DNA from: Sphyrna mokarran
Lineage: Eukaryota
DNA: 64,000 nucleotides
Reading direction: 5' to 3'
Assembly: GCA_024679065.1 (NCBI GenBank)
Contig: JAGIQG010000009.1
Span: forward strand, 66,340,001-66,404,000
The notes beneath the pieces are model-generated. The model was given only the letters and a program-made list of their open reading frames with translations, was not told where the DNA came from and did not search any database. The position numbers and the translations under genes were made by a program. Below are positions 12,831-60,534 of this stretch, one piece after another (position 1 is the stretch's first letter; every line of letters starts with the position of its first letter).

Positions 12831-13295
12831 TTCAGGACAGACAGAGGTCTTGATTTTTCAACTGTAATGGGAGCAATTTTGTGCCCACATTGTTCCCACC
12901 CAGAAACGTTAGGGACCTCTCTTCAATACACTAACAGCTGATTAGGTGGCTCCCCTGCTGTATCATCCCCTCCCATTAGAAATTTCCCAACCAGGTTTAC
13001 AACAAGACTTTAAAAACTGGAATAAGCAAAAGGGAACCAGTCAGAGGTATACACGTAAGTACAACTTCTGAGGGAGGGGGTGTGGGAAGGAAACATGGCT
13101 GGGTACTGTCCTGGCAGTGCCCCGGCACTATCTTAACACTGCCCCAGGCTCAGTGCCAGAGAGCGGAAATGGGACTTCATTTGGATAGCTCCATTCGGGG
13201 CTGGGTGGTTCCAATGTCCTGATGGGTGGGAGGGTATGATAAGGATCTTTATCTCCGTGGGGGGTCTTTTTTTTAAAAAGATCAGCTGGACAGCC

Positions 13296-13440
13296 AACAC
13301 TGCACTTGCCTGATGAAGACACAGGAGTGTTGAAAGCTCGCTATTTTACTATCAAATAAATCGGTTGGATTAATAATTGGTGTTGCTAAATTCTTACTGA
13401 GTTCTTACCACTCCAATCCAACGCTGGCATCTTTACATCA
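13296..13440 (+). mobile_element. ~140-bp ORF-less Penelope pLTR-derived element with hammerhead
   Basis: TSD cagccaaca at 13291-13299 and 13439-13447; near-identical to 31294-31434. Confidence 0.85.
13308..13341 (+). ncRNA. Minimal type I hammerhead ribozyme motif
   Basis: gc CTGATGA a GACAC agga GTGTT GAAA gc TC gc. Confidence 0.7.
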
Positions 13441-13649
13441 GCCAACATTAACAGCTCCTTCAAGCCCCACCCATTAGTGTGACGGATGAGACACGCCTCC
13501 AGCACTTTTGTTTTAAAACCACACCGGACAACATGGAGGGAAAGACAGCTAACCACCAGCTTTCTCACCTGGTCCAGCATTTAGAAAAAAAATGGAAACT
13601 TTTGCCCAAAATATCCATTCTGCTAAAGGTTTATTGATCTGAAACATTA

Positions 13650-13774
13650 GCCAGGATTCTCCGGCCCCACCCACTACCAGGATCTTCCAGCTCTGATGAA
13701 AGTCAAGGGACTTTTGGCAGGTCTGCCATATCCACTGTGGCAGTTCACATCAGGACGGAGCTGGAAAATTCCAG
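13650..13774. mobile_element. MITE inserted in a decayed Penelope pLTR
   Basis: Termini ccaggattctccggcccc / ggagctggaaaattcc; flanks resemble pLTR (ctgctaaaggtttattgatctgaaacatt ... acgctgcctgg). Confidence 0.55.
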
Positions 13775-13889
13775 ATGTTAACATTGCTCCTTTCCTTAAA
13801 CGCTGCCTGGCTGTGTGGCCTCTCTCTGATAGGTATAAAAAATCCCTTGCACTGCGTGACTAAGGCCATATTGCCTATGATGCCATGGA

Positions 13890-14090
13890 TAATACTTATC
13901 CCTCACACAGTGTCACTAAACCAGATTATCTGCTCAACATCTCACCATTGTTTGTGGGAGCTGGCTTCATACAAATCAGCTGCTGTGTTTTCCACATTGC
14001 AACAGCAACTACAATTCAAAAGTACTTCAGTGACTATAAAGTGCTTTGGGGTGTCCCAAGATCATGATAAGCGCTCTGTAGATGCGGGAC
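13890..14090 (+). mobile_element. Deu-type SINE 3' part
   Basis: cagattatctgctcaacatctcaccattgtttgtgggagctggc...aaagtgctttggggtgtcc. Confidence 0.6.
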
Positions 14091-14454
14091 TTTTTCTTTT
14101 ATATACACCAGTAAAATATATTTATAGTAAAGACTGGAAGTGCAGGTTAGTGAGTAATCGCATTTGTCAGCATATCCGAGTTTTTCAGTTTAACATCACA
14201 GCTATGGGTCATAGTGGAATAATTCAGCCACCTCCTTTCAATACCTCCTTGACCTGGTGTCTAATCTCACAGCATGGTTAGATTTCATTTGGGGTCTTCT
14301 ATCTTTAAACCTCGTATAAAGATGCAAAGCACTGCATGTCATTACACATGACAAGAGGGAATATTGAGGCATGTGGTGGTCAGATCTGCAGAACACCCCT
14401 GCCTAGTGAAATGATATCTAACCTTGGCCATCTCTTAAGTTAAGTATTAGTATC

Positions 14455-14690
14455 AACAAAAGGTTCATATTAACACTGCAATGAAGTTACGATGAAAATC
14501 CCATACAAAACACCGAGGGAGAATTTGGCTTGGCCAATAGACCTAACCAACACATCATTCAGAGGAAACTACATAGACACAAGGAGAATTTGCAGACTCA
14601 GTACAGACAGTGACTCAAGCCATGAATCGAATCCAGATCTTTGTTGCTGTGAGGCAGCAGAGATAATCATTGTGCCTCCATGCAATCCAT
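14455..14690 (-). mobile_element. tRNA-derived SINE, type 2 tail
   Basis: attaacactgcaatgaagttac; reverse-strand head tgtgaggcagcag. Confidence 0.75.
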
Positions 14691-15429
14691 AATTCTGAAA
14701 GCCAACAGTAAACCCCAGACTAGCTTGGGCTGCTGCACCTATCTCATCATGGGCCACTCACTTTAACCCATGGCTGAATAATATACAACCAATAGCAATG
14801 GGAACTTACAGCAATTTTACAGCATGCATTGCCACAGATCACCTCCATAAGTTACCATCACTACATTAAACACTGGAGTGTTTTTCTTCTGCCCCTTACT
14901 GAGCTGTAACTTACCTTGGCAAAACTCTGCATTTTAATTTTGCAAAATATCCGTAACAAATTCATTATCATCGCTCATCACATTCTCAAACCCAATCGTC
15001 ACCCGGGCTTCTGACATGGATTATAGATCCTGTGATGTTCCAATTATTTTTTGTTAAAATGGTCAATTAAATTTTTCTTCTCCTTCCCCTGCCAGTTTGA
15101 ACAATTTGTGCTGTTCCCTTTGCCATCTTGTTAAATATTAAATTGCGTCATCCCAAAGACTCCTCATTTCTGAAGCAAACAATCCCAATTTCCAAAACCA
15201 TTCCACACAGGACATCAATTCCTAATGGAGTTGAGTTAAAAGAAGCTGTGTGTACATTACACGTAAACATGTTTTAAACATTAGTTTTCATTCAGTCTGA
15301 GATTACTGGAAAACCCAGACCAGATTCTGAAGAAGAAGCTGATGATTAGCTCCTGATAGTCTTATATTATCCCCTCTCCTATGTTATTGAGAAAGGGAAA
15401 TAATGACAATTAAATAATAATTCATAAAA

Positions 15430-15560
15430 TAATGAGATTTGATTCATTGTCACAAGTATTGGAATACAGCGAAACGTATCATTTCTCATGCACTATTCAG
15501 ACAAAGCATACTGTTCATAGGGGAGAAGGAAAGAAGAGAGTGCAGAATGTAGTACTGCAG
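15430..15560 (-). mobile_element. Rex1/Babar LINE 3' UTR fragment
   Basis: Reverse complement resembles 25720-25835 and 53410-53530. Confidence 0.55.
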
Positions 15561-16406
15561 AGGTCTTAAAAATAATTTTCAGCGGGAACCATGTAGATTT
15601 GAACAAATATCATTTACTTACAGGAGTTTGAAATAATGAGCAACTAAGGCCCCAGAGTAAGGGAACTGAAGACAGCACTCTCTTAATTTAAAAAGTTGCT
15701 TGTTTCTGGGTGGTCTCAGGATAATCAATGATGTAAGAGAGAAGATAATGATTACTCAGAACAGCATAGTTCAGGCTTAGATACCAACCTGCACTTTACA
15801 GGATCTTCTAAATAAATGCTGAAAAATTAATTTGAAACATAGCTGGACATCAGAACTTTAATTACGCCAACATGGTTTTGTACTGCCTGTAACACAGTGA
15901 TGGGCAACCAAGGATATTGAGTGGACTCTTTCATCCCAGTGGGCAATGAAATTGAAATCAGACTTGGTCACTAAACATGACACCATGGAAAAGATTAAAT
16001 ACATTTAATAAATGCCAAATATTTCATGATGAGTTTTAGAAAGTATTTAATTATTTGTATATTAATAGAACCATCATCTACTTCAAGTGATAAAAATAAA
16101 AGAAATATTTACAGTTTGGATGCAGAGGGAGTGCATGACTCTCCTAATACAGTGTGTAATCAGCGTGCACCTCACTTCACTTGCCCTTGCTTCAGTCATA
16201 CTGGTAGGAAAAAACTAGGCAGTTGGAAATCAGCAGAATGTAGCAACCCTGTGCACGAGTAATGGTGAACAAAATGATTCCTGGGCTGCAGTCTGGACCC
16301 AGATAGGCTTCATGTGGAAAAATATTGAAGTCAACTGAACTCAGCCATCTCCCTGATTTGTAGTTATATTAATTACAGACAATACCGGAGGTCAACACTG
16401 AGCAAC

Positions 16407-16727
16407 AGGCAGCAAGAATGGTGGCACAATGGTTATCACTGCTGCCTCTCGTCATCAGGGACCCAGGTTCAATTCCAATCTTCAACGATTGTCTGTGTGG
16501 AAGTTGCACATTCACCCTGTGCCTGCATGAGTTTCCTCTGGATGCTGCGGTTTCCTTCCACAGTCCAAAGATGCGCAGGATAGATTCATTGGCCATGCTA
16601 AATTGATCCTAATATTAGGGGATTAGGAGGGCAAGTTTGTGGGGTTATGGGAAAAGCGACTGAGTAGGATTGTGGTCAGTGCAGGCTCGATGGGCTGAAT
16701 GGCCCTCTTCTACACTGTTGGGATTCT
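16407..16727 (+). mobile_element. HE1-type SINE
   Basis: Full head, central domain and tail. Confidence 0.85.
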
Positions 16728-16759
16728 AAAACAGCAGGATAACAGTGTGTCTGCAATGG

Positions 16760-16975
16760 AATGAGAGATAAAATGAGACAGAGAAAGAAAGAGAAAGACG
16801 GGAACAGTCAAAAAAATGGCAGACAGGGATGGGTGAGAGCTGAGATAGAGACAGACAGAACAGGGAAGGGAGTAGGAAAACGTGAGTGAGTGAGAGGACA
16901 GCAAAAAAGGAGAGAGAGAGAAAAAAAGATGTGCGGAGGGACAGTGAGAAACTGAGTGGGGAGAGGCAAAGCTAG
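16760..16975. repeat. GA-rich low-complexity tract abutting the gap
   Basis: Degenerate (GA/GACA)n purine-rich sequence. Confidence 0.7.
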
Positions 16976-17131
16976 NNNNNNNNNNNNNNNNNNNNNNNNN
17001 NNNNNNNNNNNNNNNNNNNNNNNNNNNNNNNNNNNNNNNNNNNNNNNNNNNNNNNNNNNNNNNNNNNNNNNNNNNNNNNNNNNNNNNNNNNNNNNNNNNN
17101 NNNNNNNNNNNNNNNNNNNNNNNNNNNNNNN
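16976..17131. other. Assembly gap (156 N)
   Basis: Run of N. Confidence 1.
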
Positions 17132-18184
17132 TCTTTTGATGGCCAAAGGGCAGATTTCTTCTGCTAATTCTGTATATAATCTCACCAGCCCACAGTGTGT
17201 CCAGGGGAATCTCGCCTTCCAGATAATGACTAGGCTTTATCGCTGACCACAATCCCATACTGCTCACTCCCAAAATGGAGGAAAAGATTACTGAACTTCT
17301 AAATGTGTCCTTGGAAACTATTCATTTAAAGAGAGAGAGGTAGAAAGCTCAGTTCTATCAGATCAAAATCTTTCCTGTGCTTTTAGGGCAGCATGAAATA
17401 CAGGCATTAATGTGCTGCTACCACAATGCCCTGAACCCTGTTCAGGTAGGCCAAGAATAACTCAGAACTCTGGCCAATACTACGCAATGGTGTCTCAAGG
17501 AATATCTAGGCCTCGTTCAGTTCCCAAGAGCTCCTGAGGCAAAAGGCAATGGGCGGGATTTTATGGTCTTTCTTGTCCCAAAACCATAAACCTCTAATGG
17601 AACATCCCATTGTCAGCTCCGATTCCTGTGGCTGGCCAAAATATTCACGTGACCAATTATCTGTGATTCCAAAAGAAATAATTTTTTATTTCTTTCAACT
17701 GAAGCTTATAATTCTCTCCACCAGCACCCCTCCCACCCATTCAGGAATCTAAAGTCCCCATCTCCACCCCACATCCCGGATGCTTCTTTTGACCAATTTC
17801 TACGGACAGGCTTCAAATGGGAACTTATCTTCACGGGTGTTTCTGTCACATTAGCCGAAACCCCTCAACCTGTTCTGAGATTTAAGTGTAATTATGAGAA
17901 ATTGTTGACTGCTGGCCAGCCATATCCTTTGATCTTACTCGAGCATGCACTGATCTGGCAATAATGACTGTTCCAGCGTGTTTTATTTTAACAGAGAGTT
18001 GATTAAAGTGTGATGCACAGCTGAATGCTTTAATCAACTCGAGGTCCCTGACTCAACCATAAAGCTCACTGAGACGTGCCTTGGTATCCCTGGGTAATCT
18101 TATGTTCAGAAATCCAAGCCTTGGCTGTACATTAACTCTTCTCATGACAGCCCCATGTTTGGCCATTTTCTACAATTCATTTGC

Positions 18185-18540
18185 AGACGACCCAGGTTCA
18201 ATTCCAGCCTCGGTCACTGTCTGTGTGGAGTTTGCACATTCTTCCTGTGTCTGTGTGGGTTTTCTTTAGGTGTTCCTGTTTCCTTCCACACTTCCGAGAT
18301 GTGCATTTTAAGTGGGTTGGCCATGCTACGTTGCCCCTTAGTATCCCAAGATGTGCAGGTTGGATGGATTAGCAGTGCAAATACTTGGTTATAAGGAACA
18401 GTTCTGGGTAGGATTTCCCCTTAGTGTCAGGGGAATTACATGACGTTACAAGAGTAGGGGCTGATTGGGATTTTTGTCGACGCAGACTCGATGGGCAGAA
18501 CGTCCTGATCGTGCACTATAGGAATTTTACGATTCTACGT
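18185..18540 (+). mobile_element. HE1-type SINE, 5'-clipped
   Basis: gacccaggttcaattccagcctcggtcactgtctgtgtggagtttgcacattct...; tail. Confidence 0.8.
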
Positions 18541-18904
18541 GGATTGAAGTGTAGGACTGACCCAGAAGCATGTGAAGATGATAAGACAGCACGCTTGACC
18601 TATTATGATCTCATGCTAAAACATTTAACCAGAATGTTCATATTATAGCATTTGTGAACTACCAAGTGATAATGAATTAAACCAGGGAACATAAAAGCTG
18701 AAACGCATCAGCTATCCTACGTGACAAATAAAGAAGTCAAAAATGAAATCTTGAACAAAGGCATAATCATGTAAAACATCATGGCTGACAAAATATGTGC
18801 TGCACTCTGCAAGGGCAGTATATAATTACTGTCAATCCAATCTTCCAGATACATGGCAACTACCATAGGATTTACAAACCCAAGGATATAATCAGATCTT
18901 TTTT

Positions 18905-19185
18905 TTACTTGTTAGCGTCGCAAGTAGACTTACTGCAATTAAGCTACTGTGAAAAACTCCTAGTTGCCACACTCCGGCACCTGTTCGGGAAAATTGCGGG
19001 ACAATTTAGCATGGCTAATGAGCCTAACCAGAACACCTTTCAGACTGTGGGAGGAAACTGGAGCGCCCAGAGAAACCCACACAGACATGGAGAGAACGTG
19101 CAGACTCCGCACAGGCAGTGACCCAAGCTGGAAATTGAACCAGGATCCCTGGCATTATAAGGCATCATTGCTAACCACTGTGCGA
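18905..19185 (-). mobile_element. tRNA-derived SINE, type 2 tail
   Basis: Reverse-strand head gctaaccactgtg; tail caagtagacttactgcaattaagctactgtgaaaa. Confidence 0.8.
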
Positions 19186-19416
19186 CCAAATCAAGACAGG
19201 AGAGATGAGTGGTTTGCATCTGCTGGAGTTCTTCCCATCCTGTGTAAGAAGCCTCATCAATCCATATGTCAATTAATTAAGCAGCATGGATCACACCAGA
19301 TAGAGGGACAGAACGCGTTAGCAGTCTCCTCTCATCCGGTGAGACGCTGCTGAAACCTTGCATTGAACAGTATCTGAGGCAATGACAGAACTTCTTAGAT
19401 CTTTAAGCTAAGGAAC

Positions 19417-19723
19417 CCCCGTAACTTGCCTGGATTAGCAAAAAACCTCACTTACTGTGCTGTCTGGAGAAAATACACAATTCTCTAACCAATGCTCAGG
19501 ATTCCCTTCACACACATTGTTAGCCACTTTAACACTTGAATAGCAGGTTAGATGTAAGGATTCGCATTCTAATCAGCAATCTGTAACTGTCTGTGTGGAT
19601 ATGAGTGCCTCTGCAGATCAGAACACTGCATTTGCCTGACGAAGGCACAACATAGTATCGAAAGCTCGCAGATTTACTATCAAATAAATTGGTTGGATTT
19701 AAAATTGGTGTTGCAAAACTTTA
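19417..19723 (+). mobile_element. Solo Penelope pLTR with hammerhead
   Basis: Homologous to 59880-60158; TSD ctaaggaac at 19408-19416 and 19724-19732. Confidence 0.85.
19630..19673 (+). ncRNA. Minimal type I hammerhead ribozyme motif with 6-bp stem I
   Basis: ATTTGC CTGACGA a GGCAC aacata GTATC GAAA gc TC GCAGAT. Confidence 0.75.
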
Positions 19724-20517
19724 CTAAGGAACAGAGACAGTGCTCTGTGCTCATTTGCCTCACTGTAAAGCTGGTGGTCCTTTACCTGCCATTTTGTGCC
19801 TCTATTTTTCAGTGCTGCAATCAAGCTCAGCCCCAGCTCCATTGGCAGACCCGTAACACAAAAGGCAGCAGCACTAATACCCAGGTTAGCATGACGACTT
19901 AGTACAGGAGGCTGCTTTTCCACACACTCATACTGTCACTCAGCAGAAGGGATTGGGCAGCGGCAACATTTGGCCAGCCAGCTCCCATGGGCCAGCGGAT
20001 TTTCTCAGCTGGAATTAGAATGACGGGTTCCGGAGTTCCAGGCCCGAGTACATGTTGTATTCATGTCAGTTGTTATTGCAACTTCAAACATACATGAAGC
20101 AAACTGATGAGTACTGGGCACCTCCAGCGAATTGCTCAGTGTGGAAATGGTTCACAATACATTAAAAAAACCCACCAGATTTAATTCCCAACTGCTTTGC
20201 CAGAATAGGGAAATGATTTTCTGAAATGGAACAGGATGAATTAAGTCTACCTTGTTGTGTTTGAATCATCTGCTGCGTGACATTTGCTTCACAAACTGGT
20301 CACTGTGCTGCCAGGCACTCAAAGCACAAGACCATTTTGTTCTTAAACAATGGTGTCCATTTAGTTTGGATGATAGGAGATCATCCTTGCATCAGCTGCC
20401 TATTTACAACTCTCAAGTTGGCATCTAATTCTGACTGCAACACACCAGCACCCCCATCGCTCCTCAACATTGCACCTTGACCTGCTGGAAAAAGATGATG
20501 AGCTGCCTAAGCCAGGG

Positions 20518-20762
20518 AGTAAAAAGTCTTATAGCACCAAGTTAAAGTCCAACAGGTTTATTTGATAGTAAACACCACAAACTTTTGGAACACTTTCGTC
20601 AAGTGAGTGGACAGTTCTGATCAGAAACAAGGCATATAAAGGCACACACAATTTACAGCTTGTGGCACTTACGATCAAATAAACCTGTTGGACTTTAACT
20701 TGTGTGTTGTGAGACTTCTTACTGTGTTTACCCCAGTCTAAAGCCAGCATCTCTACATCATG
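20518..20762. mobile_element. Inverted pair of Penelope pLTR ends
   Basis: gttaaagtccaacaggtttatttgat mirrored by atcaaataaacctgttggactttaac; + copy ends in ccccagtctaaagccagcatctctacatca. Confidence 0.85.
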
Positions 20763-21711
20763 AGTTAGAGAGATCAGAGGTCTTTCTGGTCAGAAAGTGC
20801 GAGTCAGACCTATAATGCAAAAATTTTGCCACGGAAATAAACAGAGACAAAACAATCCAGACACAGGCATGTAAACATGAACATCAACTGTGAAAAACCA
20901 TGATCTGCTGGATGGAAGGCAGGATAGTACTGACAGCAGACACATATCTTGGACAAACATCAGTCAATGGTAAGTCCACGAGGGACAAGAGACTGACTAA
21001 CCAATTGTTCAGCTAATGGTACAATTCTGTTATTGGAATAAGGCAGCAGACATTAGTAGCATAAACTCTGAAAGGCAATGAGCAAATATTGCTCCCTCAT
21101 GCAGAGTTTTATGTACTGTTATCCGCAAGAGTTCCATTTGCTTTTAGAAAGCCAGATGTCTATAACCTCCCCACCAGAGACCATTAAAGACCCAGTTTCA
21201 TTATGTAAAAGGTTTGTGAAATATTGTAAAGTTTTCAAATTAAAATTCCAATTAAATCTCAGCCCATTAAAATTGGATCATTAAAAAAAATTGATTAACT
21301 GGATTTCTGATACCTGTCTTGAAAAACAATTTTATTCATAAGAAAAAAGATGGAAAGGATTAGTTTCATCTCAGCAGTGCATTTTTTTTCCTTCTGAACT
21401 AAAGTTTTAAAAATAGGTATGAATATGTAAAGCAACAGGAAAATAAAAGCTGGAAGCAGGCTCGGCATCATGTGTGGTAAATTCCAAGTTCAGATTGGAG
21501 GGTATGGGGAGGTCATACTGTCATATGACAAACGTGTTTCAAAAGAGAAACTTGACAACAAAGATGCCTTTCAACCTTTATTGCACTCTCGTGTTTAGCT
21601 GGTGAATGATAATCAGATGTAAAACTAGAGATATTAAATCACTGGAACTTTTCTGTACTTCCACATATACTGCCCAACAAACTGCTTTCAATGCCAACAA
21701 TCTAGATTTAG

Positions 21712-21997
21712 ACAGCATCACGCTGGCCGAGTGGTTAGCACCACTGTCTTTGAGCACCAGGGACTTGGGTTTGCTTCCCAGCTTAGGTCACTGTCCATGC
21801 GGAGTTTGTACATTCTCTCAGTGTTTGTGTGGGTTTCCTCCTACAGTCCAAAAGGCGTGCTGATTAGGTGCACTGACGATGCTAAATTCTTCCTCGGTGT
21901 ACCCAAACAGGCACTGGAATGTGGCAACTAGGGCATTTTTACTGTAACTTCAGTGCAGTGAAGCCAAGCCCTGACAGTAATAAATAAATTTAACTTT
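21712..21997 (+). mobile_element. tRNA-derived SINE, type 2 tail
   Basis: gagtggttagcacc head; ttactgtaacttcagtgcagtg...taataaataaa tail. Confidence 0.8.
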
Positions 21998-22062
21998 GTA
22001 AAAGATGCTTCTCAGTTGTGCAATTAGACAAAATTTGAGACCCAGACATATAAAGCAATATT

Positions 22063-22181
22063 AGGGAAGGAAATTCCAGCCCCATCCACCACTGAGATCT
22101 TTCAGTCTGCCAAAGTCTTTTGAGGGGCCCTCTGCATTCCCATTGGGGCATCCTGCCTGAGCAGGGCTGGAAAATCCCAGC
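22063..22181. mobile_element. MITE inside a - strand L2 remnant
   Basis: TIR ggaaattccagccc / gggctggaaaatcc. Confidence 0.65.
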
Positions 22182-22410
22182 TGAGGCCAGATGATCAAGT
22201 TTTTGGTCAAAGAATTTGGCTTTAAGGGAATCTTAAAGGCAGGAAGAGAGATTGAAGATAAAAAAATTTCATACAATCACAGAATGGTTACAGTGCAGAA
22301 GGAGGCCATTCAGCCCATCATGTTCCTGCTCTCTGGAACAGCAATGCACCAACTCCCACTCCCCAGTCTTTTCCCTGTAGTTCAGCAAATGTCTTCACTT
22401 CTGCTAAACA

Positions 22411-22722
22411 TCGGCAGCACAGTGATTAGCACTGCTGCCTCACAGCAGCAGGAACACAGGTTCAATCCTGGCCTTGGGTGACTGTCTGCATGGGCTTTCT
22501 CCCAGTGCTCCAGTTTCTTCCCACAGTCCAAAGATGTGCAGGTTAGGTGACTGACCTTGCTAAATTGATGCCTGGTGTCTAAAGAAATGTCAGTTAGATG
22601 GATTAGCCTGTCAGCGTCAGGGTAAATACGTGGATTATGAGGATAGGGTCTGGATGGGATTGTTGTCGACGCAGACTTGATGGGTCAAATGGCCTCCTTC
22701 TGCACTATAGGGATACTATGAA
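22411..22722 (+). mobile_element. HE1-type SINE
   Basis: Head and tail. Confidence 0.85.
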
Positions 22723-22724
22723 AT

Positions 22725-23115
22725 AGCCAATTTTGTTTTCGAATAGGACCGCGATTAAGTTTGCCTCTGCCACACTCTCAGGCAGAGCATTCCAGATCCT
22801 AACCACTCAATGTGAAAATGTTTTTCCCTGCATGCTGTTGCTTTTTATTGCCATTCACCTTAAAAGGGTTGTCGTCCCTTGTGCCAGTGGGAACAGTTTC
22901 CCTTGGGAAACATTTCTGTCCACACCTTTCATGATTTCGAACACTTCTATCAAATCTCCTCTTAATCCTCTTGTTTCCAAGGCAAAGAGTCCCAGCTTGT
23001 CCAATCGATTCACTTGGCTCATATCCAAAACCATCTTCAGAAATATTTTTCTGTATGCTCCCTCGAATGCCTTCACATATTTTGTAAAACGTGGTGCCCA
23101 AGATTGGACACAATA
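22725..23115 (-). mobile_element. CR1 LINE 3' fragment
   Basis: RLDKLGLFALETRGLRGDLIEVFEIMKG. Confidence 0.85.
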
Positions 23116-24049
23116 ATCAAGGGAGTGACTGGCAGAGCTTAGGGGCTAGACAGCTGAAAGCACATTTGCCAAAAGGTAGAGTGATTGGAATTGAGGATGC
23201 CCAAGAGACCAGAATTCAAGGAGTGCAAACACCCCAGAGGATTAGATGACTGGAGGGGGTTTCAGACACAAGATGTGATTTGAAAACAAGGATGTGTATT
23301 TTCAATTTGAAACATAGGCAGTCTAGTTACATCATGCACTAGAGTTCAATTGAATGAATACGCTCCTTGTAGAACATCAAACAGAGTCAGAGTTTTACAA
23401 CAGAAAAAGAGACCCTTCAACCTGTCTGTACCAGCCGTCAAACACCCAACTATTTTAATCCCATTTGGTCCAGAGCAGCAGAGTTTTAATTCCAAAATAC
23501 CCTTCCTCCCAGGGGAATTTCCAATGTATCCATGCAAAAACAAAACACTGGCTATCAGGAATACAAATAAGAAATGCTGGAAATGCTCAGCATCTGCAGA
23601 GAGAAAGAAAGTGTACTTGATGACCCTCGTTAAGACAATGCATGGTGCAAGATTGAGTTAGGTGAAGCAGCCCAAACTTGGATTATTTCCTTTGGCTCCA
23701 TCTTAGCTAGTTTTAGTTCAATGATTTTGGCACTGAGATGGCAGAACTCAGATCTCAGCATGAAGACTGCAGTGCTAATAAAAACAAATTTATTTAATTT
23801 ATATGTTAAAACCAAGCGTGAGCTCAGAGTTCCTTGTTGATACAGACATCTGCCTTTACTCAAACAGAGATCCAATTAAAGCTTGGATAACACCCATCCC
23901 AGCAGACGTGTACAGATTTTAACTTCTTCATCTTGTATCGTGTTGAAATCAATCTCCCTAAAAAGACAACTGGTTTAACATTGTCTCAATCCCATTATAC
24001 CCCAGAGTAGACAATATTCTTTGCTTGCTCTCTTCCAAAAACAACCAAG

Positions 24050-24645
24050 AATAGATTAAATTAAATAGAATGAATGGCAGATGCAATGACATGGATAAAT
24101 ATGAGGTTATCCACTTTGGTAACAATAATAGGAAGACATTTTTATTTGAATGAGAGAGACAGATACTTAGTGAGACCTTGGTGACATTGTGCATCAGTCA
24201 CTGAAAGTAACATGCATGTACAGCAGGCAGTAAAGAAGGCAAATGGTATTTTGATCTTCATAGTGAAAGAGTTTGTGTATAGGAAGAGAAATGTTTTATT
24301 GCAATTGTGTAAGACATTGGTGAAACCACACCTGGAGTATTGTGTGCAGTTTTGATGTCTTATCTGAGGAGGGATGTCTTTGCTATAGAGAGAGTACAAT
24401 GAAGGTTAATCAAGCTGATTCCTGAGATAGCAGGTCTGTCATATGAAGACAGACCAAGTTGACTAGGATTATATTCACTGGAGTTTAGAAGAGTGAGAGG
24501 GGATCTCATAGAATCTTATAAAATTCTAACAGGATTAGACATGGGAGATTCAGAAAGAATGATCCCAATGGTGGGGGAGTCCAGAATTAGAGGTCATAGT
24601 TTGAGGATAAGGGGTAAGTCTTTTTGGAACAGGTGAAGAGAATCA
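24050..24645 (+). mobile_element. CR1 LINE RT C-terminal fragment
   Basis: LVKPHLEYCVQF, LGLYSLEFRRVRGDLIE. Confidence 0.85.
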
Positions 24646-24810
24646 ACCTAACCTGTACATGTTTGGAGTGTGGGAAGAAACTGGAGCACCTGGAGGAAAC
24701 CCATACAGAAATGGGGAGAAGGTACAAACTCCACGCAGACAGTCTCCAAGGTAGGAATTAAATCTGGGTCCCTGCTGCTGTGAGGTAGCAGTGCTAACCA
24801 TTGTGCCATG
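24640..24810 (-). mobile_element. HE1-type SINE 5' half
   Basis: Reverse-strand head tgtgaggtagcagtgctaaccattgtgcca. Confidence 0.8.
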
Positions 24811-25171
24811 TGAATATGCTCAGCCTACAGGCCCATGGGGTTATAGTCAATTCTATCAATCCAGATTATTGGATCACAATTAGTAAAAGAATATCTAACC
24901 ACAGTCCAGACACTGAGGCCGATTACTGCCTTCACCAGTAATCAAGGGTCAGCAATGGTATAGATTATGGCTCAAAATGGAGGCCTTTACTCATGGCTGA
25001 GTAAAAGATGGGTCATATATAATACAACACGTATTATCTGGGGTTTTAGACTTAAAAAAAGCTGAAAGGTTGGTATAGAGATTGAACAACAGAGGCTTCT
25101 TGCTTCTGCAAATGCATCTGACAGTGAAGACTAACCAAAACATGTGGGAAGGAATTCACTGAACCTGCCTC

Positions 25172-25282
25172 TCAGTGGGGTTTTCCAGGCCCGCTGCCAT
25201 GAATGGAGATTTGGCTGAGCATCAAATTCACCGTTCTTGCTGGTAGCAGGGACAGGGTGTGCGAAATTGGAGAATTCCGGCT
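25172..25282. mobile_element. MITE (relatives at ~36355-36470 and ~45235-45336)
   Basis: Termini ggggttttcc / ggagaattccgg; shared interior gagatttggctg...caaatt. Confidence 0.55.
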
Positions 25283-25434
25283 GTGATGTGATAACAGGAA
25301 GTAATGCAATATATATTTACATAAGTATGAATTCAAGTAAATAGACTGATTTCATCCAACATATGTTTTACCAGAAGCCTTTGGGGATCAACAGTTTATA
25401 ATATAAGCTATCATGAACGAATGGTTATAAATGT

Positions 25435-25835
25435 AAAGGTCATAAACAAAGCCTAGTCCATCACGCAAACCAGCCTCCCATCCATCTACTCTGTCTACAT
25501 TTCCTGCTGCCTTAGAAAAGCAGCCAGCATAATCAAGCACACCATGCACCCCAGACATATTCTCTTCCACCTTCTTCCAATGGGAAAAAGATTCAAAAGT
25601 CTGAGGTCACAAACCAATCGACTCAAGAACAACTTCTTCCCTGCTGCCATCAGACTTTTGAATAGACCTACCTCATATTAAGTTGATCTTTCTCTACACC
25701 CTAGCTTTGACTGTAACAATACACTCTGTACCCTTTCCTTTCTCCCCTACTCTATTAAAAATATGTTTTGTCTGTATAGTGCCAGAAGCAATATTTTTCA
25801 CTGTATACCAATACCCAGGGCAATAATAAATCAAA
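25435..25835 (+). mobile_element. Rex1/Babar LINE 3' end
   Basis: KAASIIK..HP.H.LFHLLP.GKRFKSL...TNRLKNNFFPAAIRLLN; ends aataataaatcaaa. Confidence 0.85.
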
Positions 25836-26242
25836 AGCATTTGACTGGCCTTCTATAGTGCTTTATGAAAAGTGGCACGACAATTTGCTGACTGTCAGGA
25901 CACAATTTTAATAAGACAATTCTCCGATCTTTCCCTGGAGGGCAATAAATTGAAACTGACCTCTACAACTGGACAGAGAGAAGAATTGTTGTCAATCAAA
26001 CTCCGAAAATTGAATTTTTATTCCCAGGTCAGGAATGACATTTGGGACAATTCCCACTCAGCAACCCGACTTGCAAATTCCCAGATAGTTGGGGATTCGT
26101 TCTGGTGTTGGGTGGGGTGAAATGGTAGTCAGGCCTGGTGCGCAGGAATGGAGTCTGGCTGGGCAAAAAGGCCAGTTATCTTTCTGTGAAGAAAAGAATG
26201 AAACCAATAACAGTCCTCCAACTCTCACCCTCTCCCAGAAAC

Positions 26243-26592
26243 TCATCATAGAATCATAGAACCCTACAGTGCAGAAAGAGGCCCTTCGGCCCATCGAGTC
26301 TGCACTGAACACAATCCCACCCCAGGCCCTACTCCCATATTCCTACACATTATACCCACTAACCCCTCTAACCTACGCATCCCTGAACAATAAGGAGCAA
26401 TTTCTTAGCGTGGCCAATCAACCTAACCCGCACATCTTTGGATTATGGCAGGAAACCTGAGTACCCGGAGGAAACCCACGCAGACACAAGGAGAATGTGC
26501 AAACTCCACACAGACAGTGACCCGAGCCTGGAATCGAACCCAGGACCCTGAGGCTGTGAAGCAGCAATGCTAATCACTGTGCTACTGTGACA
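26243..26592 (-). mobile_element. HE1-type SINE, well preserved
   Basis: catagaatcatagaaccctacagtgcagaaagaggcccttcggccc tail; full head. Confidence 0.9.
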
Positions 26593-26676
26593 CCTGATAT
26601 CGGAGAGGAAGAGGCAGTGAGCTGCTATTGTCGCTCCCACAGAATGCGGGTGGCAGGTGTGCTCATATTGAAGAGT

Positions 26677-26953
26677 TAAAGTTATTTATTAGTCACAAGT
26701 AAGGCTTACATTAACACTGCAATGAAGTTACTGCAAAATTCCTTAGTTGCCACACTTCAGTGCCTGTTCGGGTGACTGAACTTAACCAGCATATCTTTCC
26801 AATTGTGGGAGGAAACCACAGTACCTGGAGAAAACCCATGTAGACATGGGGAGAATGTGCAGACTCCACATAGACAGTAATCCAAGCCTGGAATCAAACA
26901 CAGGTCCTTGGCGCTGTGAGGAAGCAGTGCTAACCACTGCCATTGTGCCACCC
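26677..26953 (-). mobile_element. tRNA-derived SINE, type 2 tail
   Basis: tttattagtcacaagtaaggcttacattaacactgcaatgaagttactg. Confidence 0.85.
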
Positions 26954-28799
26954 GAAGTTTGTGAGAGTATAAATGAGCTGGAAAGTTTGCTTAGCTTTGG
27001 CTAAAGAGAACAATCACTAATTTCTTCCTCACCATGAAAGCTAGTCCTAGGATTAAGAATTACTCAGCTGGGAAAGAAAAAGAATAGAAACAAACCCTTG
27101 GGACCTAAGAATCATTTTTCACTGGTTCCTGGAGAATGAAGTGTTCACTTAAAGAACAGAGTACAATATAACCATGGGCAAGAGTGGAGTGGGGATTTTC
27201 ATCTCTATTAGAAGTTCATGGGGAAGCTTTTCTGTACTTTAAAGTACAAGCTGCCTTCTGAAGTAATGTTTAATATTGTTGTTAGTTTGTTTGTTACAGT
27301 AAATATCTTAAAATCTTGTTGTGCAATCCTTCTGTCACTGGGAGCTCACTTTCTTTATGAAACTATAATCCCCTTAGATATTGAAAACTTGTTTAACATG
27401 AGGTATTGCACACATCTCCTCCTGCGCCATGCCCTCACCCTGTTCACAACTCTGGATTCCCTCAACACTCATTACTATTCCCCAGTCTCCAAGGCCTCAA
27501 TGTCTGATTGTACAGCAGCTTTGAAAACAGCTTCTCAGTACATGGGAGATGGGGGAGAGGGCTTGGCATGGGGGAAACCAAAATAGTAAAATAAATGTGA
27601 ATTGAGGAAGGACAAGGCAGCCTTTTCTGAGAGATGGAAGTCCAAATTCCTCACACAAACATGTAGATATTTAAATACATCCAAAGTAAATACAGACTCA
27701 AATAACAAATATGCAGATAGCTATTGCTTTCGACTACCTGATTCAATGAAAGAGTCCAGATATGATTCTTTTAATAAAAAAAACATATTTGTCATAACAT
27801 CCTTTAGTGAAGAACATTTCAAATCTTTACACGCAACACTGGAGCCTTTTGTCCATTCCCATGGCAACAATAACATACTATAACTTCTGGGAATTAAACA
27901 TACCTCTCCAAAATATGAACTTACTGAACCATACCACCACTCAACAGATAACGCTTACCAGAGAGCTCTTGAAGCGTGTATATTTTTTGTGTTTTAATGC
28001 ACAACAGAGGAATTGTAACTCTGATAATAAATCATTCATTGCCTGGCTATACAGCAGATTGTGTCTGGCTTTACATAGGCAACAAGATGTTTATTGGCTT
28101 CCTGTGAACTTTGAACTCTGCTAAGTAAAATCACGACGACCTCATGTGCTCACAAAACCGCTCTACATGAGGAGCATCAACTCACCTGTAGATAGGATCC
28201 TGCATAATCATCATCTTGCTCTCATCCCAGGTCCACTCTTTTTTCTAAAGAGAGCAACAAACAAAGAAGGGAAAATTACTCGGCAGTAATAAGTTGTCAA
28301 CAAATTGCAAGTGTTAGACAAGCAGTAATACAGAGTCAAATGTGCCATTTGTCCGGGAAATGGTTGTCAACATTGTGTGAAATTCCTGCACTAAGATGCT
28401 ATGCCAATCTAAATTCCAAAGGAATTGAGTATATGGATTAGGGCCACATTTGCAGGAAAAATAAACATTGCCCGCATGCGCTGCATTCCATTTTTCTCTG
28501 AAAACAACTTAGATAAAATTAGCTTACAATCCTTTGTGCAGAAGAGATTAAGAACACATCTCATCAAGGTGTTTAAAATATTCAAAGGTTTCGTTGTATA
28601 GATCCAGATAAACAATTTCTGCTGGTGAGAGAAAAGTTGAGAGAAAGTGGAAAATCTTGAGGTTCCTACACTTGCATGTTAGCTGGATCTACCCATCACT
28701 GAAAATTAAATCAGTTTGAGTGTTGATGAAAAAAAAAGAGACAAACTGTCAAATCTGCACTCATCAGGACAGATGCAAGAATACCAAATTTCAAAAGTA

Positions 28800-29199
28800 A
28801 CAACTTGCTGACCTACACTGGATTCCAGTTTACCAAGACCTTAGTTTTAGAATATTCATCCTCATGTTCAAATCCCTCCAAGATCATGCACTCTTCATCT
28901 TAGTAACTTGCTTCAGTCCCATAACTTTTGAAGGACTCTACTTTTTTCCAGTTCTGATCTCTTTTGAATCCTTTTCATTTTCACACCTTCAGCCGTCTAG
29001 GCTCTAAGCACTGCACTTCCTGTCCAAACCTCTCCATTCCAGTCTTTCGCTCTTCTCATCGAGATTCTTCTCAAAATTGAACTTTTTGATCAAACTTCTG
29101 GTCATCTGTTATAACATTTCCTGCTGGTGGCTCAGTGTCAAATGGGTGCCTGGTTGGGCTACAGTGAAGCACCGAGACATTTTACTGCACTAAAAATGC
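28800..29199 (+). mobile_element. L2 LINE 3' end (tail resumes at 30227)
   Basis: ADLHWIPV remnant; tail gtgaagcacc...gacattttactgcactaaaaatgc|tatataaat. Confidence 0.65.
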
Positions 29200-30226
29200 A
29201 GTTGATGGGAAATATTCAACTTGGAGTTCAGTTACAAGTGGTGTACCTCAGGGATCTGTTTTGGGGCCACTGCTGTTTGTCATTTTCATAAATGACCTAG
29301 CTGAGAGTGTAGAAGGAATGGGTTAGTAAATTTGCTGATGACACCAAAGTCGGAGGAGTTGTAGACAGTGAGGATGGATGTTACAGTTTGCAGAGGGACA
29401 TAGCTAAGCTGCAGAGCTGGGCCAAGAGGTGGCAAATGGAGTTTAATGCAGAAAAGTGTGAGGTGATTCACTTTGGTAAGAGTAATAGGAGTACAGAATA
29501 TAGGGCTAATGGAAGGACTCTTCGTAGTGTTGACGAGCAGAGAGATCTCAGTGTATATGTGCATAGCTCCCTGAAAGTTGGCACCCAGGTTGATAAAGTT
29601 GTTAAGAAGGCATACAGTGTGTTAGCTTTTTTTGGTAGAGGGATTGAATTTCGGAGCTGTGAGGTCATATTGCAACCGTACAAAACTCTGCTGCAGCCGC
29701 ACTTGGAATATTGCCTACAGTTCTGTTCGCCGCATTATAAGAAAAATGTGGAGGCATTGAAAAGGGTGCAAAGGAGGTTTACCAGAATGTTGCCTGGTAT
29801 GGTGGGAATGTCTTATGAGGAAAGGCTGAGGGACTTGAGATTATTTTCATTAGAGAAAAGAAGATTAAGAGGTGACCTAATTGAGGCACACAAAATGATC
29901 AGAGGGTTAAATAGGGTGGACAGTGAGAGCCTTTTTTCTTTGCTTGGTGATGGCTAACACAAGAGGACATGGCTTTAAATTAAGGGGTGGTAATTATAGG
30001 ACGGATGTAAAGAGATAGATTCTTTACTCAGAGGGTAGTAAGGGTGTGGAATGCCTTGCCTGCAGCAGTTGTGGACTTGACAACTTTAAGGGCATTCAAA
30101 TGGTCAGAGGATAGGCATATGGATAAGATTGGAATAGATTAGGTTAGAGGGTCATTAGATTGGTTCCATTGCTTGGCGCCACATCGAGGGCCGAAGAGCC
30201 TGTATTGCGCTGTAATGTTCTATGTT
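29200..30226 (+). mobile_element. HER1/CR1 LINE, 5'-truncated
   Basis: [26 protein letters not shown]; ttctatg tail; TSD ctaaaaatgc at 29190-29199 and 30227-30236. Confidence 0.92.
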
Positions 30227-30349
30227 CTAAAAATGCTATATAAATCCACACACTGTTGTGGAATTCCCAGTCTCAACAACAATACATTTCTGAAGGGTAG
30301 ATGGATTCACTTTCCTCATGAAGATGAGAGAATTTAATCCATTCCTCTT

Positions 30350-31170
30350 CTGCAGCAAGACCTGGACAATATCTAGTCTTGGGCTAACAAATGGCAAGTA
30401 TCACACACACCACACAAATTCCAGGCAATGAACATCTCCAATAAGATCATATCTAACCATCATACCTTGACAATCAATAGCATTAACATCTGAATTCCCC
30501 ACTATAACCATCCTGGGGGTTACCACTGACCAGAAACTCAACTGAACTAGCCGTATAAATAAATACAATTTCTCCAGGTCAGAAACTAGGATTCCTACAC
30601 GTGTAACTCACCTCCTGACTCCACAAGCCTGTTCACCATTGACAAGGCATAAGTCAGGAGTGTGGTGGAGTATGCTCCATTTGCCTAGAAGAATACAGTT
30701 CAAACAACACTCAAAAAATTCAACATCACCCAAGGTAAAGCAGCCTTCTTGACTGGCACCCCATCACAAACATTCACTCCCTCCACCAATAGCATATAGT
30801 AGCAACAATGTATACCATCTACAAGATGGTACAAAATCTACAAGGAACTCAGGCTTTTTAGACAGCACCTTCCATACAAATGACCGCTACAAATCTAGAA
30901 GGACAAGAACAGCAAACACATGGGAACATCATCATCTTGAAGTTCCCTTCCAAGTTATTAACCATCCTGACTTGGAAATATATCACCATTCCTTCACTGC
31001 CATTGGGTCAAAATCCTGGAAATTTCTCCCTAACAGCACTGTGGATGGACCTACACCACAAGAACTGCAGTGATTCAAAAAGACAGCTCACCACCACTTA
31101 CTTAAGGGTAATTAGTGATGGGCAATAAATGCCAGCCTAGCCAGTGACGCACACGTCCCTTGAATGAATA
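30350..31170 (+). mobile_element. CR1-clade LINE 3' fragment (second family; more pieces at 36470-36785 + and 52880-53180 -)
   Basis: LQQDLDNI...WANKWQV; tail gatgggcaataaatgccagcctagccagtgacgcacacgtcccttgaatgaata. Confidence 0.8.
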
Positions 31171-31236
31171 AAATAAAACAGTAAGAATTTAGCAACACCA
31201 ATTTATAATCCAACCGATTTATTTGATAGTAAAAAA

Positions 31237-31269
31237 GCGAGCTTTCAACACTCTGTGTCTTCCTCAGGC
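31237..31269 (-). ncRNA. Minimal type I hammerhead ribozyme motif
   Basis: Reverse complement reads gc CTGAGGA a GACAC aga GTGTT GAAA gc TC gc. Confidence 0.65.
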
Positions 31270-31303
31270 AAATGCAGTGAACACTGCAGTGAACACTGCA
31301 TTT

Positions 31304-31336
31304 GCCTGAGGAAGACACAGAGTGTTGAAAGCTCGC
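31304..31336 (+). ncRNA. Minimal type I hammerhead ribozyme motif
   Basis: gc CTGAGGA a GACAC aga GTGTT GAAA gc TC gc. Confidence 0.65.
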
Positions 31337-32514
31337 TTTTTTACTATCAAATAAATCGGTTGGATTATAAATTGGTGTTGCTAAATTCTTACTGAGTTCT
31401 TACCACCCCAATCCAACGCCGGCATCTGTATATCATAAAATAAAACACGCAGTCCTTAATTTCAGGCAATCCCCGGGTTGGAATTTTGTGTCAAGTTGGG
31501 TCCTGCAGGAATCGTGCTTGGACTCCAACTATCAACAGTCTATATCAACAATTTGGATGCGAGAGCCAAACAGAATGGGCCTGAGCTTCTGTGGTGTGTC
31601 AGTCAGAGTCAGATTGCCACTATGCCCCTACTGCTTAACTGCAAATCTTCACGATCCAGTCTCTCCTGCCTTCAGGCTCAGTGAGCACAGTGCAGGGTAA
31701 TGCACCCCTCAGCACTGCAATACCAGACAGGAAGAGGCTGCAGCTCAGTTTTGTGTCACACCAGCTGCCCTAATTCAGTGAGTTTACAGATGCTGTCACT
31801 TACAAACCAGCCAGAAAATAGGCCGCCAGTTATGTGACTAGAATTTGGTAGGCAGGTTGTGGTTTGCACTCAGGAGAAGTTTGACAGTTGGTGGGAAGCC
31901 AGTCAGGGGGTGTGACTTTTGAGGGTACGTAACAACATGAGAAAACACTTCAACAGAGGCAGTTAAATACTGACCAAGGAGACATAGGAAAGGAGACCGT
32001 GAAAAAAGGCCTTCACTTTAAACATTAGTTTGTCCTTTCTTTTTACAGATGTTAATTGACTTGCCTGTGTGTTTTCAAACTATTCTCTTTGTGTTGATCT
32101 GCATTGTATCCTATCTCTTCAATGTAGCTTAACAATTTGCTGTTGCGAACAATACTGCATGATTTCTTCTGCTAAACTGAGGGTCATCTCACATTCTTCA
32201 ATGCTGCCTTTCGCCTCTATCCAACTCTTGAAGATCATTTTATGCTAATGTCACCTCCTCCTCATCCATGTTGTAGCTCTGACTGCACCTTGAACTCTCA
32301 CCATGAAAACTCATTCTTCATCTCTGAACAAACTGATAATAAGCCCATTAACAGACTCAACTGGCCATTTAAAAAATTTGGGTGGATTGCCAATTACACT
32401 TTTGAAAATGAAATGTCTTACACCAAGAAAGGGCATGCTGACCCGGGGATGGGAGCTTTAAGCCATTAAGGGCAAGTGTTCAATGTTTTATTATTCATTA
32501 TTCATTACCATAAG

Positions 32515-58895: not shown

Positions 58896-59090
58896 TGTTT
58901 AGCACCTTTAAATGTAGTAAAATTACTCAAGGTGTTTTGAAGCAAAATGTTTCAACGAGTCACAAAAGGGGCTAATGACCAAAAATTTAGTGAGAGATAG
59001 ATTTCAAGGTGCGTTGAAATGAAGTGAGAAAGACAGAGAACGTTTAGGATGAAATTCCAGAGCTTAGCACCTTGACAGCTGAAGGCATGA

Positions 59091-60158
59091 TGTGGAGATG
59101 CCAGCATTGGATTGGGGTAAACACAATAAGAAATAAGAAATCTCACAACACCAGGTTAAAGTCCAACAGGTTTATTTGTTGTCACAAGCCACTAGCTTTC
59201 AGAGCATTGCCTCTTCATCAGGTGAATGGGAGTTCTGTTCACAAACAGGGCACATAAAGACACAAACTCAATTTACAAAATAATAGTTGGAATGCAAGCC
59301 TTTACAGGTCATCAAGTCTTAAAGGTTCAGATAATGAGAGTGGAGAGATAGTTAAGCACAGATTAAAAGAGATGTGTATTGTCTCCAGCCAGGCCAGTTA
59401 ATGAGATTTTGCAAGCCCAGGCAAGTCATGGGGATTACAGGTGGTGTGACATGAACACAAGATCCCGGTTGAGACCGTCCTCATGGGTGCGAAACTTGGC
59501 TATCAGTCTCTGCTCAGCGACTCTGCATTGTAGTGTGTCATAGGGGCCAATTTGGAGAATGCTTACAGTCAGAGGCAAACGCCCATGACTGCTGAATTGT
59601 CCCCAACAGGAAAAGAACATTCTTGCCCGGTGATTTTCGAGTAGTGTTCAATCATTCGTTGTCGTAGTGTCTACATGGTCTCCCAGTGTACCATGCCTCG
59701 TGACAGCCTTTCCTCCAATGTATCAGGTAGACAACATTGCCCGAGTTGCAAGTGCATATACCTAGTAAATAGGTGACCTTCACGACACACAGAGTCGCTA
59801 AGCAGAGACTGATAGCCAAGTTCTGTACACATGAGGATGGCTTCCACCGGGATCTTGGGTTCATGTTACACCATCTGTAACCCCCACGATTTGCCTGAGC
59901 TTGCAAAATCTCATTAACTGGCCTGGCTGGAGACAGTACACATCTCTTTTAACCTGTGCTTAACGCTCTCTCCATTATCTGTACCTTTAAGAATTGATTA
60001 CCTGTAAAGACTCGCGTTCCAACCATTATTTTGTAAACTGAGTTTGTGTCTTTATATGCCCTGTTTGTGAACAGAACTCCCACTCACCTCATGAAGGGGC
60101 AGCGCTCCGAAAGCTCGTGGCTTGTGATACCAAGTAAACCTGTTGGACTTTAACCTGG
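59091..60158. mobile_element. Penelope-like element 3' end with inverted pLTR, inserted in an L2 remnant
   Basis: - strand GIY-YIG peptides NVVYLIHWRKGCHEAWYTG and RVAEQRLIAKFRTHEDGLNRD; inverted arms ~59150-59545 / 59775-60158; TSD agctgaagg(c/t)atga at 59077-59090 and 60159-60172. Confidence 0.92.
59189..59225 (-). ncRNA. Minimal type I hammerhead ribozyme motif
   Basis: TCAC CTGATGA AGAG gcaatg CTCT GAAA gc TA GTGG. Confidence 0.65.
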
Positions 60159-60534
60159 AGCTGAAGGTATGACAGGCGGAGAATTGAAATGGAGGATATC
60201 TCACAAATGTCTCTTGAGTGTAGCAGTGATGTGGATTGCTTATTCTTCAAACAAATCTCCATATTTCCAGGACAGAATGAGGACAACATTGGAGGAAAGA
60301 AAAATACGGTTTAGGGCACAATGGTGGAAGGGGTTTAAAAAAAAAAAATGGAGAAAAGAGCATATGAAGATGTACTCAAAATTACAAAATACTATATAGT
60401 GTAGATGAGGCCTTTCAGCCCATCGAGTCCACATTGGCACATGAAAGGCTCTCTCGGAGGCTTCTTAATTTGAATAAACAAATAATTTACAAGGTTGCTT
60501 CTGTAGCTGCTTGCTTCAAACTTGTTCATAGTAC

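Follow-up and report, generated by a model that had tools for sequence, protein, structure and literature searches.

The two short insertions without open reading frames (ORFs) at positions 13296-13440 and 31292-31435 of the window, by which is meant the whole 64,000-nt stretch of Sphyrna mokarran DNA analysed here (contig JAGIQG010000009.1, positions 66,340,001 to 66,404,000), are, by their sequence, 3' ends left by truncation of a Penelope-like element (PLE) of Neptune type that is itself autonomous. They are 93% identical over 145 nt and hold the last part of the element's pseudo-long terminal repeat (pLTR), with a predicted hammerhead ribozyme and a tail. About one third of the family's copies break off just upstream of the ribozyme, and we put at roughly one half the probability that such stubs end where reverse transcriptase (RT) would be stalled by a long-range helix, predicted in the RNA, that lies shortly upstream of the hammerhead. 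What is new is the mechanism that the stubs appear to record; a claim to a new family of mobile elements does not hold.

Positions in the element are given as offsets from the first A of aacactgca (offset 0, window 13296), with a slop of 1-2 nt from loop-length polymorphism. On this scale the predicted hammerhead cut lies at +43, the tail ends at about +143 with the ORF's ATG directly after it, and the tail-less end falls at about +98 to +110. The main sample comprises the first 100 consecutive tail matches on contig C1, all of them fetched and picked by their 3' end only, with forward-arm starts mapped; the 40 best matches of a DNA search, which favours copies spanning the whole query, were excluded from the statistics. 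In this sample 30 of the 78 copies at risk end between +10 and -9 (0.019 per nt, in an interval set post hoc, after inspection of the data) as against 2 of 48 between -10 and -29 (0.002 per nt), a rate about nine times that just upstream; farther upstream the rate is 0.0005-0.0016 per nt. Genome-wide counts of exact-end patterns, corrected by 30 fetched loci each, give about 430 arm ends at 0, about 420 at -6 and 240 at -7. At -10 the figure is no higher than 140 and includes several cases of junction microhomology. The excess of ends is real, as the preliminary description of this DNA had expected in proposing non-random 5' ends, and the smooth spread along the pLTR that would have spoken against it is not seen. 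The single common start at aacactgca that it also proposed gives way to a plateau with an edge near -6/-8: three copies of the 100 end exactly at 0 and seven at +5, and the second window start is a fold-back junction. Nor is there an excess of ends at the predicted cut (3 of 89 at +40 to +49 in the same sample), and since the edge lies about 50 nt upstream of that cut, ribozyme cleavage does not set the boundary.

An inverted piece adjoins 58 of the 100 copies, and a short inverted arm is attached to 37 of the 52 short ones. The outward end of the inverted arms called by BLAST lies at +95 to +110 in 46 of 56 cases, 16 of these at +99. The two arms of a palindrome are strongly coupled in length: 37 are short/short, 19 long/long and 2 mixed (one of each kind), so that 56 of 58 fall in the same class (Fisher p=4e-13). 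They also resemble each other in alleles, differing by 1.4 nt on average between arms of one locus and by 5.5 nt between loci (37 loci, p=1e-4). Simple snap-back was rejected on geometry it cannot give, the inverted arm reaching at least 10 nt further 5' than the forward arm in 10 of the 37 short palindromes. The protein of PAc (Poseidon of Anolis carolinensis) is described as nicking and extending both target strands, with two internal starts flanking the tail and a mostly uncleaved RNA as template (PMC11167929); the palindrome arms match these results and, by that analogy, would imply two primings on one template. At two palindromic loci (L218/L219 and L227/L228) an extra, non-genomic G precedes offset -6 on both arms, and the spacers contain short re-copied end pieces.

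The stop at this wall of ends depends on the context of the template. In 130 copies genome-wide, about 70 places of which were examined, the tail runs on into the ORF, and on the second pass a stop at the wall is found in 1 of 26 copies made ORF first, against 30 of 78 in the main sample (p=4e-4); the other 25 pass. A candidate for the missing ingredient is a pairing between pLTR and ORF start. In folds of four junction loci, -23 to -14 pairs with about +202 to +211 and -31 to -25 with about +213 to +219 at probabilities of 0.93-1.0, the pairing reaching -44/+237. The predicted duplex (-37.5 to -37.8 kcal/mol, z=-3.8, none of 300 shuffles as good) pairs the pLTR segment with the stretch of the 3,029-nt unit that is its best partner, and it begins just beyond the edge of ends. 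A sister subfamily keeps the predicted helix through one-sided changes, while in an older family (about 25-30% diverged, 2,627 tail matches), with a much-changed pLTR strand, pairing in the same register is predicted in 5 of 8 sequences (z -2.4 to -4.7), one C-G to U-A change being seen by eye. The older family has a similar, softer wall, with 23 of 30 ends at or 3' of -1 and none from -2 to -73 (a count of 25 of 30 at offset 0 before L271 and L272 were reassigned, on inspection by eye, to the continuing copies). Finally, in template-jump junctions the positions joined in pLTR and ORF start run in antiparallel order (rho=-0.82, n=11, p=0.002), and two of the junctions lie at -40/+231, beside the helix end.

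These observations can be brought together if, in an RNA spanning pLTR, tail and ORF start, pLTR -44 to -11 pairs with ORF nucleotides +199 to +237. Complementary DNAs would then be primed on both target strands, starting from +143, where the tail ends, and from the tail-less site (+98 to +110), and would pass the uncleaved hammerhead and stall a few nucleotides before the helix; one such cDNA would leave a simple stub (element 1 of the window) and two joined head to head a palindrome (element 2). With the ORF start absent after the tail, or already copied, no helix would form and RT would read on. The coupling of the arms and the missing second-pass stop would both be expected because the helix needs an ORF start that lies after the tail and is still single-stranded.

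Several points weigh against stalling at such a helix, which is itself a prediction. The ORF strand is almost invariant, covariation amounting to one pair in one decayed copy (L370), and 3 of the 8 older-lineage sequences lack significant pairing (the ORF strands tested being possibly non-cognate); three inverted arms of the older lineage extend beyond the edge (to -13, -23 and -40). The ends are spread over about 30 nt (+20 to -8), and an inner rod pairing (-5 to +45 with +145 to +195), tried as an account of that spread, is not significant (z=-0.7), nor are upstream extensions. An initiator-like TGCAGA stands at the edge, and the extra G on both arms at two palindromic loci is what a cap would give. 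In the raw genome-wide ladder, where 12,872 arms cover +5 to +24 and 8,184 cover -8 to +24, the contrast is only two-fold (a loss of 3.6% per nt, and of 1.6% per nt directly upstream), which is weak because substitutions have not been removed. Among the tail-to-ORF loci L131-L200, moreover, 30 of 56 full-length copies (a count with one locus entered twice and two probable local duplicates) stop at +14 to +129 into the second pLTR, a loss rate far above that of the ORF interior. Repeated ends also occur among these loci at -130, -812 and -856/-857.

The main rival to a stall at the helix, and in our view a somewhat unlikely one, is transcription starting near -7 from an internal pLTR promoter, with tail-started RT running off the template after 140-150 nt, at the 5' end of the mRNA or on short pLTR transcripts acting in trans, to give a strong-stop product. 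It explains the edge and the coupled arms equally well, and an internal pLTR promoter is described for the Penelope of Drosophila virilis (PMC2377424); the initiator-like TGCA(+1)GA at -10 to -5 and the extra G would suit it. However, full-length copies should then pile up at the same start, which the 25 of 26 that pass do not; simple insertions have no clear excess of G (4 of 11 at -6, 4 of 9 at -7), the D. virilis geometry, with a start 46 nt before the intron, would put the start near -120, and the antiparallel jumps are left unexplained. Mobilisation in trans, as had been suggested, may still come about from short transcripts, but nothing in the data requires it.

Decidedly less credible is a local obstacle or an end-joining bias, in which RT would be stalled by a 5-bp hairpin (TGCAG/CTGCA, -10 to +8) or by factors bound where TTGCAG at -6 is predicted to be a 3' splice site, and the self-complementary words TGCA/CTGCAG would draw junctions there. 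The hairpin is present in minimum free energy (MFE) folds, the seven ends at +5 fall on a TGCA, and palindromes centred on TGCA/CTGCAG words exist; 40-43 of 44 long copies keep motifs like splice donors at -73 and -66 and motifs like acceptors at -6 and -1, and the intron of D. virilis Penelope ends at helix I (PMC4209133). Such an obstacle should act at every pass and on each arm independently, and neither is seen. It is weakened, like a simple start site, because ORF-first copies rarely stop at the wall. A search of the genome for spliced junctions gave 0 matches, which fits either intron retention or no intron. The predicted intron, of 60-68 nt, would span -73/-66 to -6, a segment whose homologue in the window is at about 19550-19616; like that of D. 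virilis Penelope, it would lie directly 5' of the hammerhead. The 5' strand of the predicted helix covers the predicted branch-point region, and a link between helix and intron retention is speculation.

Whether the stubs form a lineage of their own was examined on a 133-nt alignment, which has limited power against a small secondary lineage; the haplotype-distance tests used 75 of the 78 copies (L035, L110 and L090 lacking the anchor), and the L082 row of the short-versus-long allele table is mis-extracted. Short and long copies are not told apart by any of the 22 variable columns (minimum p=0.066). Of 29 short copies, 22 have a long copy at a distance of 0-1 nt, and short copies fall in every subfamily and have alleles in common with long ones. 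Permutation tests of short against long gave p=0.07 and 0.16, the extension of the 3' end into the ATG is equal in the two classes (p=0.84), and for each window element there is a long copy that differs by 1 nt. The stubs are best read from these sequences as repeated by-products of each active subfamily; haplotypes are common to short and long copies, and no independent retrozyme or short interspersed element (SINE) lineage was found. That a non-autonomous ribozyme-plus-tail element is transcribed and re-mobilised from its own copies is very unlikely: about one third of the sample is of this size, the distances among short copies are slightly smaller than those to long ones (the p=0.07 above) and three tandem arrays exist, but there is no single start, as the check for SINE-like features (a plateau of ends with its edge at -6/-8) found, the boundary is not the cut site, and the one hammerhead-bearing array junction tested is confined to a single locus. 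Nor is the discrete unit of the preliminary description supported as self-propagating and retrozyme-like, the window elements being a monomer and a palindrome and not tandem units each with a type I hammerhead.

The parent element is well represented: in the 2.77-Gb genome, 4,396 sites match a 34-nt pattern of its tail exactly, and the unit between two tails, 3,029 nt long, was obtained from the adjoining loci L118 and L117. Long copies encode, in a single ORF, an RVT_1 domain (E=6.5e-10) and, at the C terminus, a GIY-YIG domain (E=2e-4; 21.8 bits, just below the 22.6 cut-off), and the stubs of the window match these copies at 93-96% identity. Between the two domains lies a CxxxxCxxC linker, CHSNLCKTC in L121; a CX2-5CxxC linker between RT and endonuclease (EN) is given as the mark of Neptune/Nematis (PMC8557442). 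The assignment to Neptune, putative as against Nematis, comes from this linker and the layout. Partial tandems of the pLTR, an inverted copy, a one-sided tail and a pLTR hammerhead make up the layout known from EN-containing (EN+) PLEs. These copies, and the relative at 19417-19723, bear out that the inserts represent a Penelope pLTR at its 3' end, including a minimal type I hammerhead.

The ribozyme core was said to be intact, which holds for the core nucleotides and the AGCT stem III (CTGANGA...GAAAGCTC in both inserts, CUGANGA...GAAAGCUC as RNA) and not for the flanking pairs: the two inserts have a helix I of only 2 bp, as have 49 of 74 cores, and G.U as pair 10.1-11.1, as have 61 of 74. 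The core is matched in 74 of 78 copies. As judged from sequence, the window hammerheads thus qualify as minimal type I by core, helix II and palindromic stem III, not by G10.1-C11.1 or a 4-5-bp helix I. The hammerhead fold is not the MFE structure in either insert, and an Rfam scan of the window returned no hammerhead family, only microRNA-like hairpin matches below the gathering score; the PAc ribozyme required protein (PMC11167929). A long hairpin at +67 to +122 (about window 13363-13418) appears in all young-family folds examined, with the tail-less end (+98 to +110) in its upper part.

The window inserts and their hammerhead cores are real, and the target-site duplication (TSD) described for each was confirmed for element 1, where it is 9 bp long; since this overlaps the first four bases of the element, its true start may lie anywhere from 0 to +4. 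The second insert is the forward arm of a head-to-head palindrome of about 254 bp, and a single 13-bp TSD encloses both arms, which are identical over 101 nt; the inverted arm had been overlooked in the preliminary description. Its 5' 'start' being the fold-back junction and not a junction with the target, the two inserts have no insertion boundary in common. The sister-subfamily relative (91% identity) starts at offset -203, immediately past the ORF stop, and extends to about +99; it has no tail, and its 3' limit is the tail-less site. These features and the tandem arrays described below are collected in Table 1.

Table 1. Features of the window related to the PLE family, and three tandem arrays elsewhere in the genome
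Feature	Position	Strand	Remarks
Element 1, 5' TSD	13291..13299	.	last 4 nt common to TSD and element start
Element 1, 5'-truncated pLTR 3' end (hammerhead, hairpin, tail)	13296..13438	+	offsets 0/+4 to ~+143; 1 difference from long copy L094
Element 1, predicted minimal type I hammerhead	13308..13341	+	CUGAUGA 13310-16, AGCU stem III, GAAA
Element 1, hammerhead detail	helix II 13318-22/13327-31; predicted cut 13339/13340	+	helix I 2 bp
Element 1, 3' TSD	13439..13447	.	
Sister-subfamily pLTR insertion with TSDs	19408..19732	+	insert 19417-19723; 9-bp TSDs 19408-16, 19724-32
Decayed head-to-head stub, older related PLE family	20518..20762	.	~75% identity; no reliable TSD
Palindromic insertion (element 2), 5' TSD	31168..31180	.	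13 bp
Inverted tail-less arm with its own hammerhead core (minus strand)	31179..31279	-	offsets ~+2 to +99/+102
Junction spacer, re-copied end sequence	31280..31290	.	11 nt
Forward arm, offset -1 to tail	31291..31434	+	hammerhead core at 31306, predicted cut 31334/31335
Palindromic insertion, 3' TSD	31435..31447	.	13 bp
Older-family head-to-head PLE insertion, long arms	59077..60167	.	9-bp TSD; pLTR strands used in helix test
Tandem array L161	G000:C749:36341600-36344900		unit +47..+202, starts 2-6 nt after cut; 8 tails on one strand; inverted arm with same junction
Tandem array L162	C905:25586300-25588800		unit +8..+183; 4 hammerhead-bearing units; 10-nt deletion from one base after predicted cut
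Tandem array L163	C771:27292500-27294700		unit +27..+167

The window also holds a repeat of about 1 kb in two inverted copies (47219-48195 and 61173-62151, 98.7% identity) with older relatives of 79% identity including 29201-30229, a very abundant SINE-like repeat of about 300 bp throughout, and a run of 156 N at 16976-17131. Elsewhere in the family, three loci (L049, L052 and L108) carry non-overlapping upstream ORF sequence in inverted orientation, a minority class with the layout of LINE-1-type twin priming. Independent insertions apparently occupy the same site of another repeat (L013/L027/L066, and the 3' flanks of L031, L034, L061, L067 and L071), and the flank motif they have in common suggests a target preference; in many flanks CCAG/CAGA occurs about 12-20 nt beyond the element end.

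The only retrozyme-like material found lies outside the window, in three single insertions, each with an 11-bp TSD, that hold tandem 141-166-nt units of pLTR and ORF start with identical junctions. They resemble what rolling-circle copying of small circles, or repeated jumps on one fragment, would give, and the L162 junction was found four times, all at its own locus. Rather doubtful, and distinct from the stall itself, is the further idea that the pairing of an ORF start that comes after the tail with the pLTR segment bearing the predicted branch point and 3' splice site serves as a conserved switch in Neptune RNA that keeps the template unspliced, stops RT past the uncleaved hammerhead and favours jumps or small circles across its base. 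If true, it would explain intron retention in PLEs, the flood of ~140-bp and palindromic stubs and the birth of tandem retrozymes in a single insertion, as at L162.

These copies bear on PLE integration, on the inverted ends it leaves and on the retention of introns, and PAc is, to our knowledge, the only in vitro PLE system. The thousands of young copies here form an in vivo record, which supports priming on both strands from two tail sites of the same template; in the arrays confined to single loci, the passage from PLE to retrozyme may be visible. Inverted tail-less pLTR copies, solo hammerheads from truncated PLEs and the PLE origin of retrozymes have already been described, and a literature search, with Dfam, Repbase, subscription journals and supplements outside it, found neither a conserved stop site nor a helix between pLTR and ORF reported.

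The ribozymes resemble the described minimal hammerheads of PLEs (PMC4209133) in the extra nucleotide between 9 and 10.1, the long helix II and the palindromic 15.2-16.2, and have a 2-bp helix I like that of D. virilis; the G-C conserved there at 10.1-11.1 is mostly G.U here. Like the non-LTR retrozymes (PMC7229834; bioRxiv 10.64898/2026.07.22.740005), the stubs are short and ORF-less, carry a type I hammerhead and stem from the pLTR of a PLE, but the tandem definition of a retrozyme fits array L162 only, the window elements being monomer and palindrome with a weak 2-bp helix I and no lineage of their own. PAc (PMC11167929) is alike in its extension of both strands, the two starts flanking the tail, the uncleaved template and the required ORF start, and its AC-rich start stem-loop resembles the +67 to +122 hairpin. 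It belongs to a different clade, in which the ORF starts in stem II and not directly after the tail, and its description, supplements aside, mentions neither stall site nor long-range helix. Also close are the EN+ PLEs of the Neptune clade (PMC8557442, PMC3846280), as far as these papers describe them, with the same ORF of RT and C-terminal GIY-YIG, Cys linker and pLTR hammerhead, a head-to-head tail-less inverted copy, a one-sided tail of 30-40 bp and TSDs mostly of 10-14 bp. Truncation is described there with no mention of a preferred stop, and palindromes as arising from self-priming on an antisense template; unlike them, the family reported here has a conserved wall of ends, coupled arm classes and a candidate pLTR-ORF helix.

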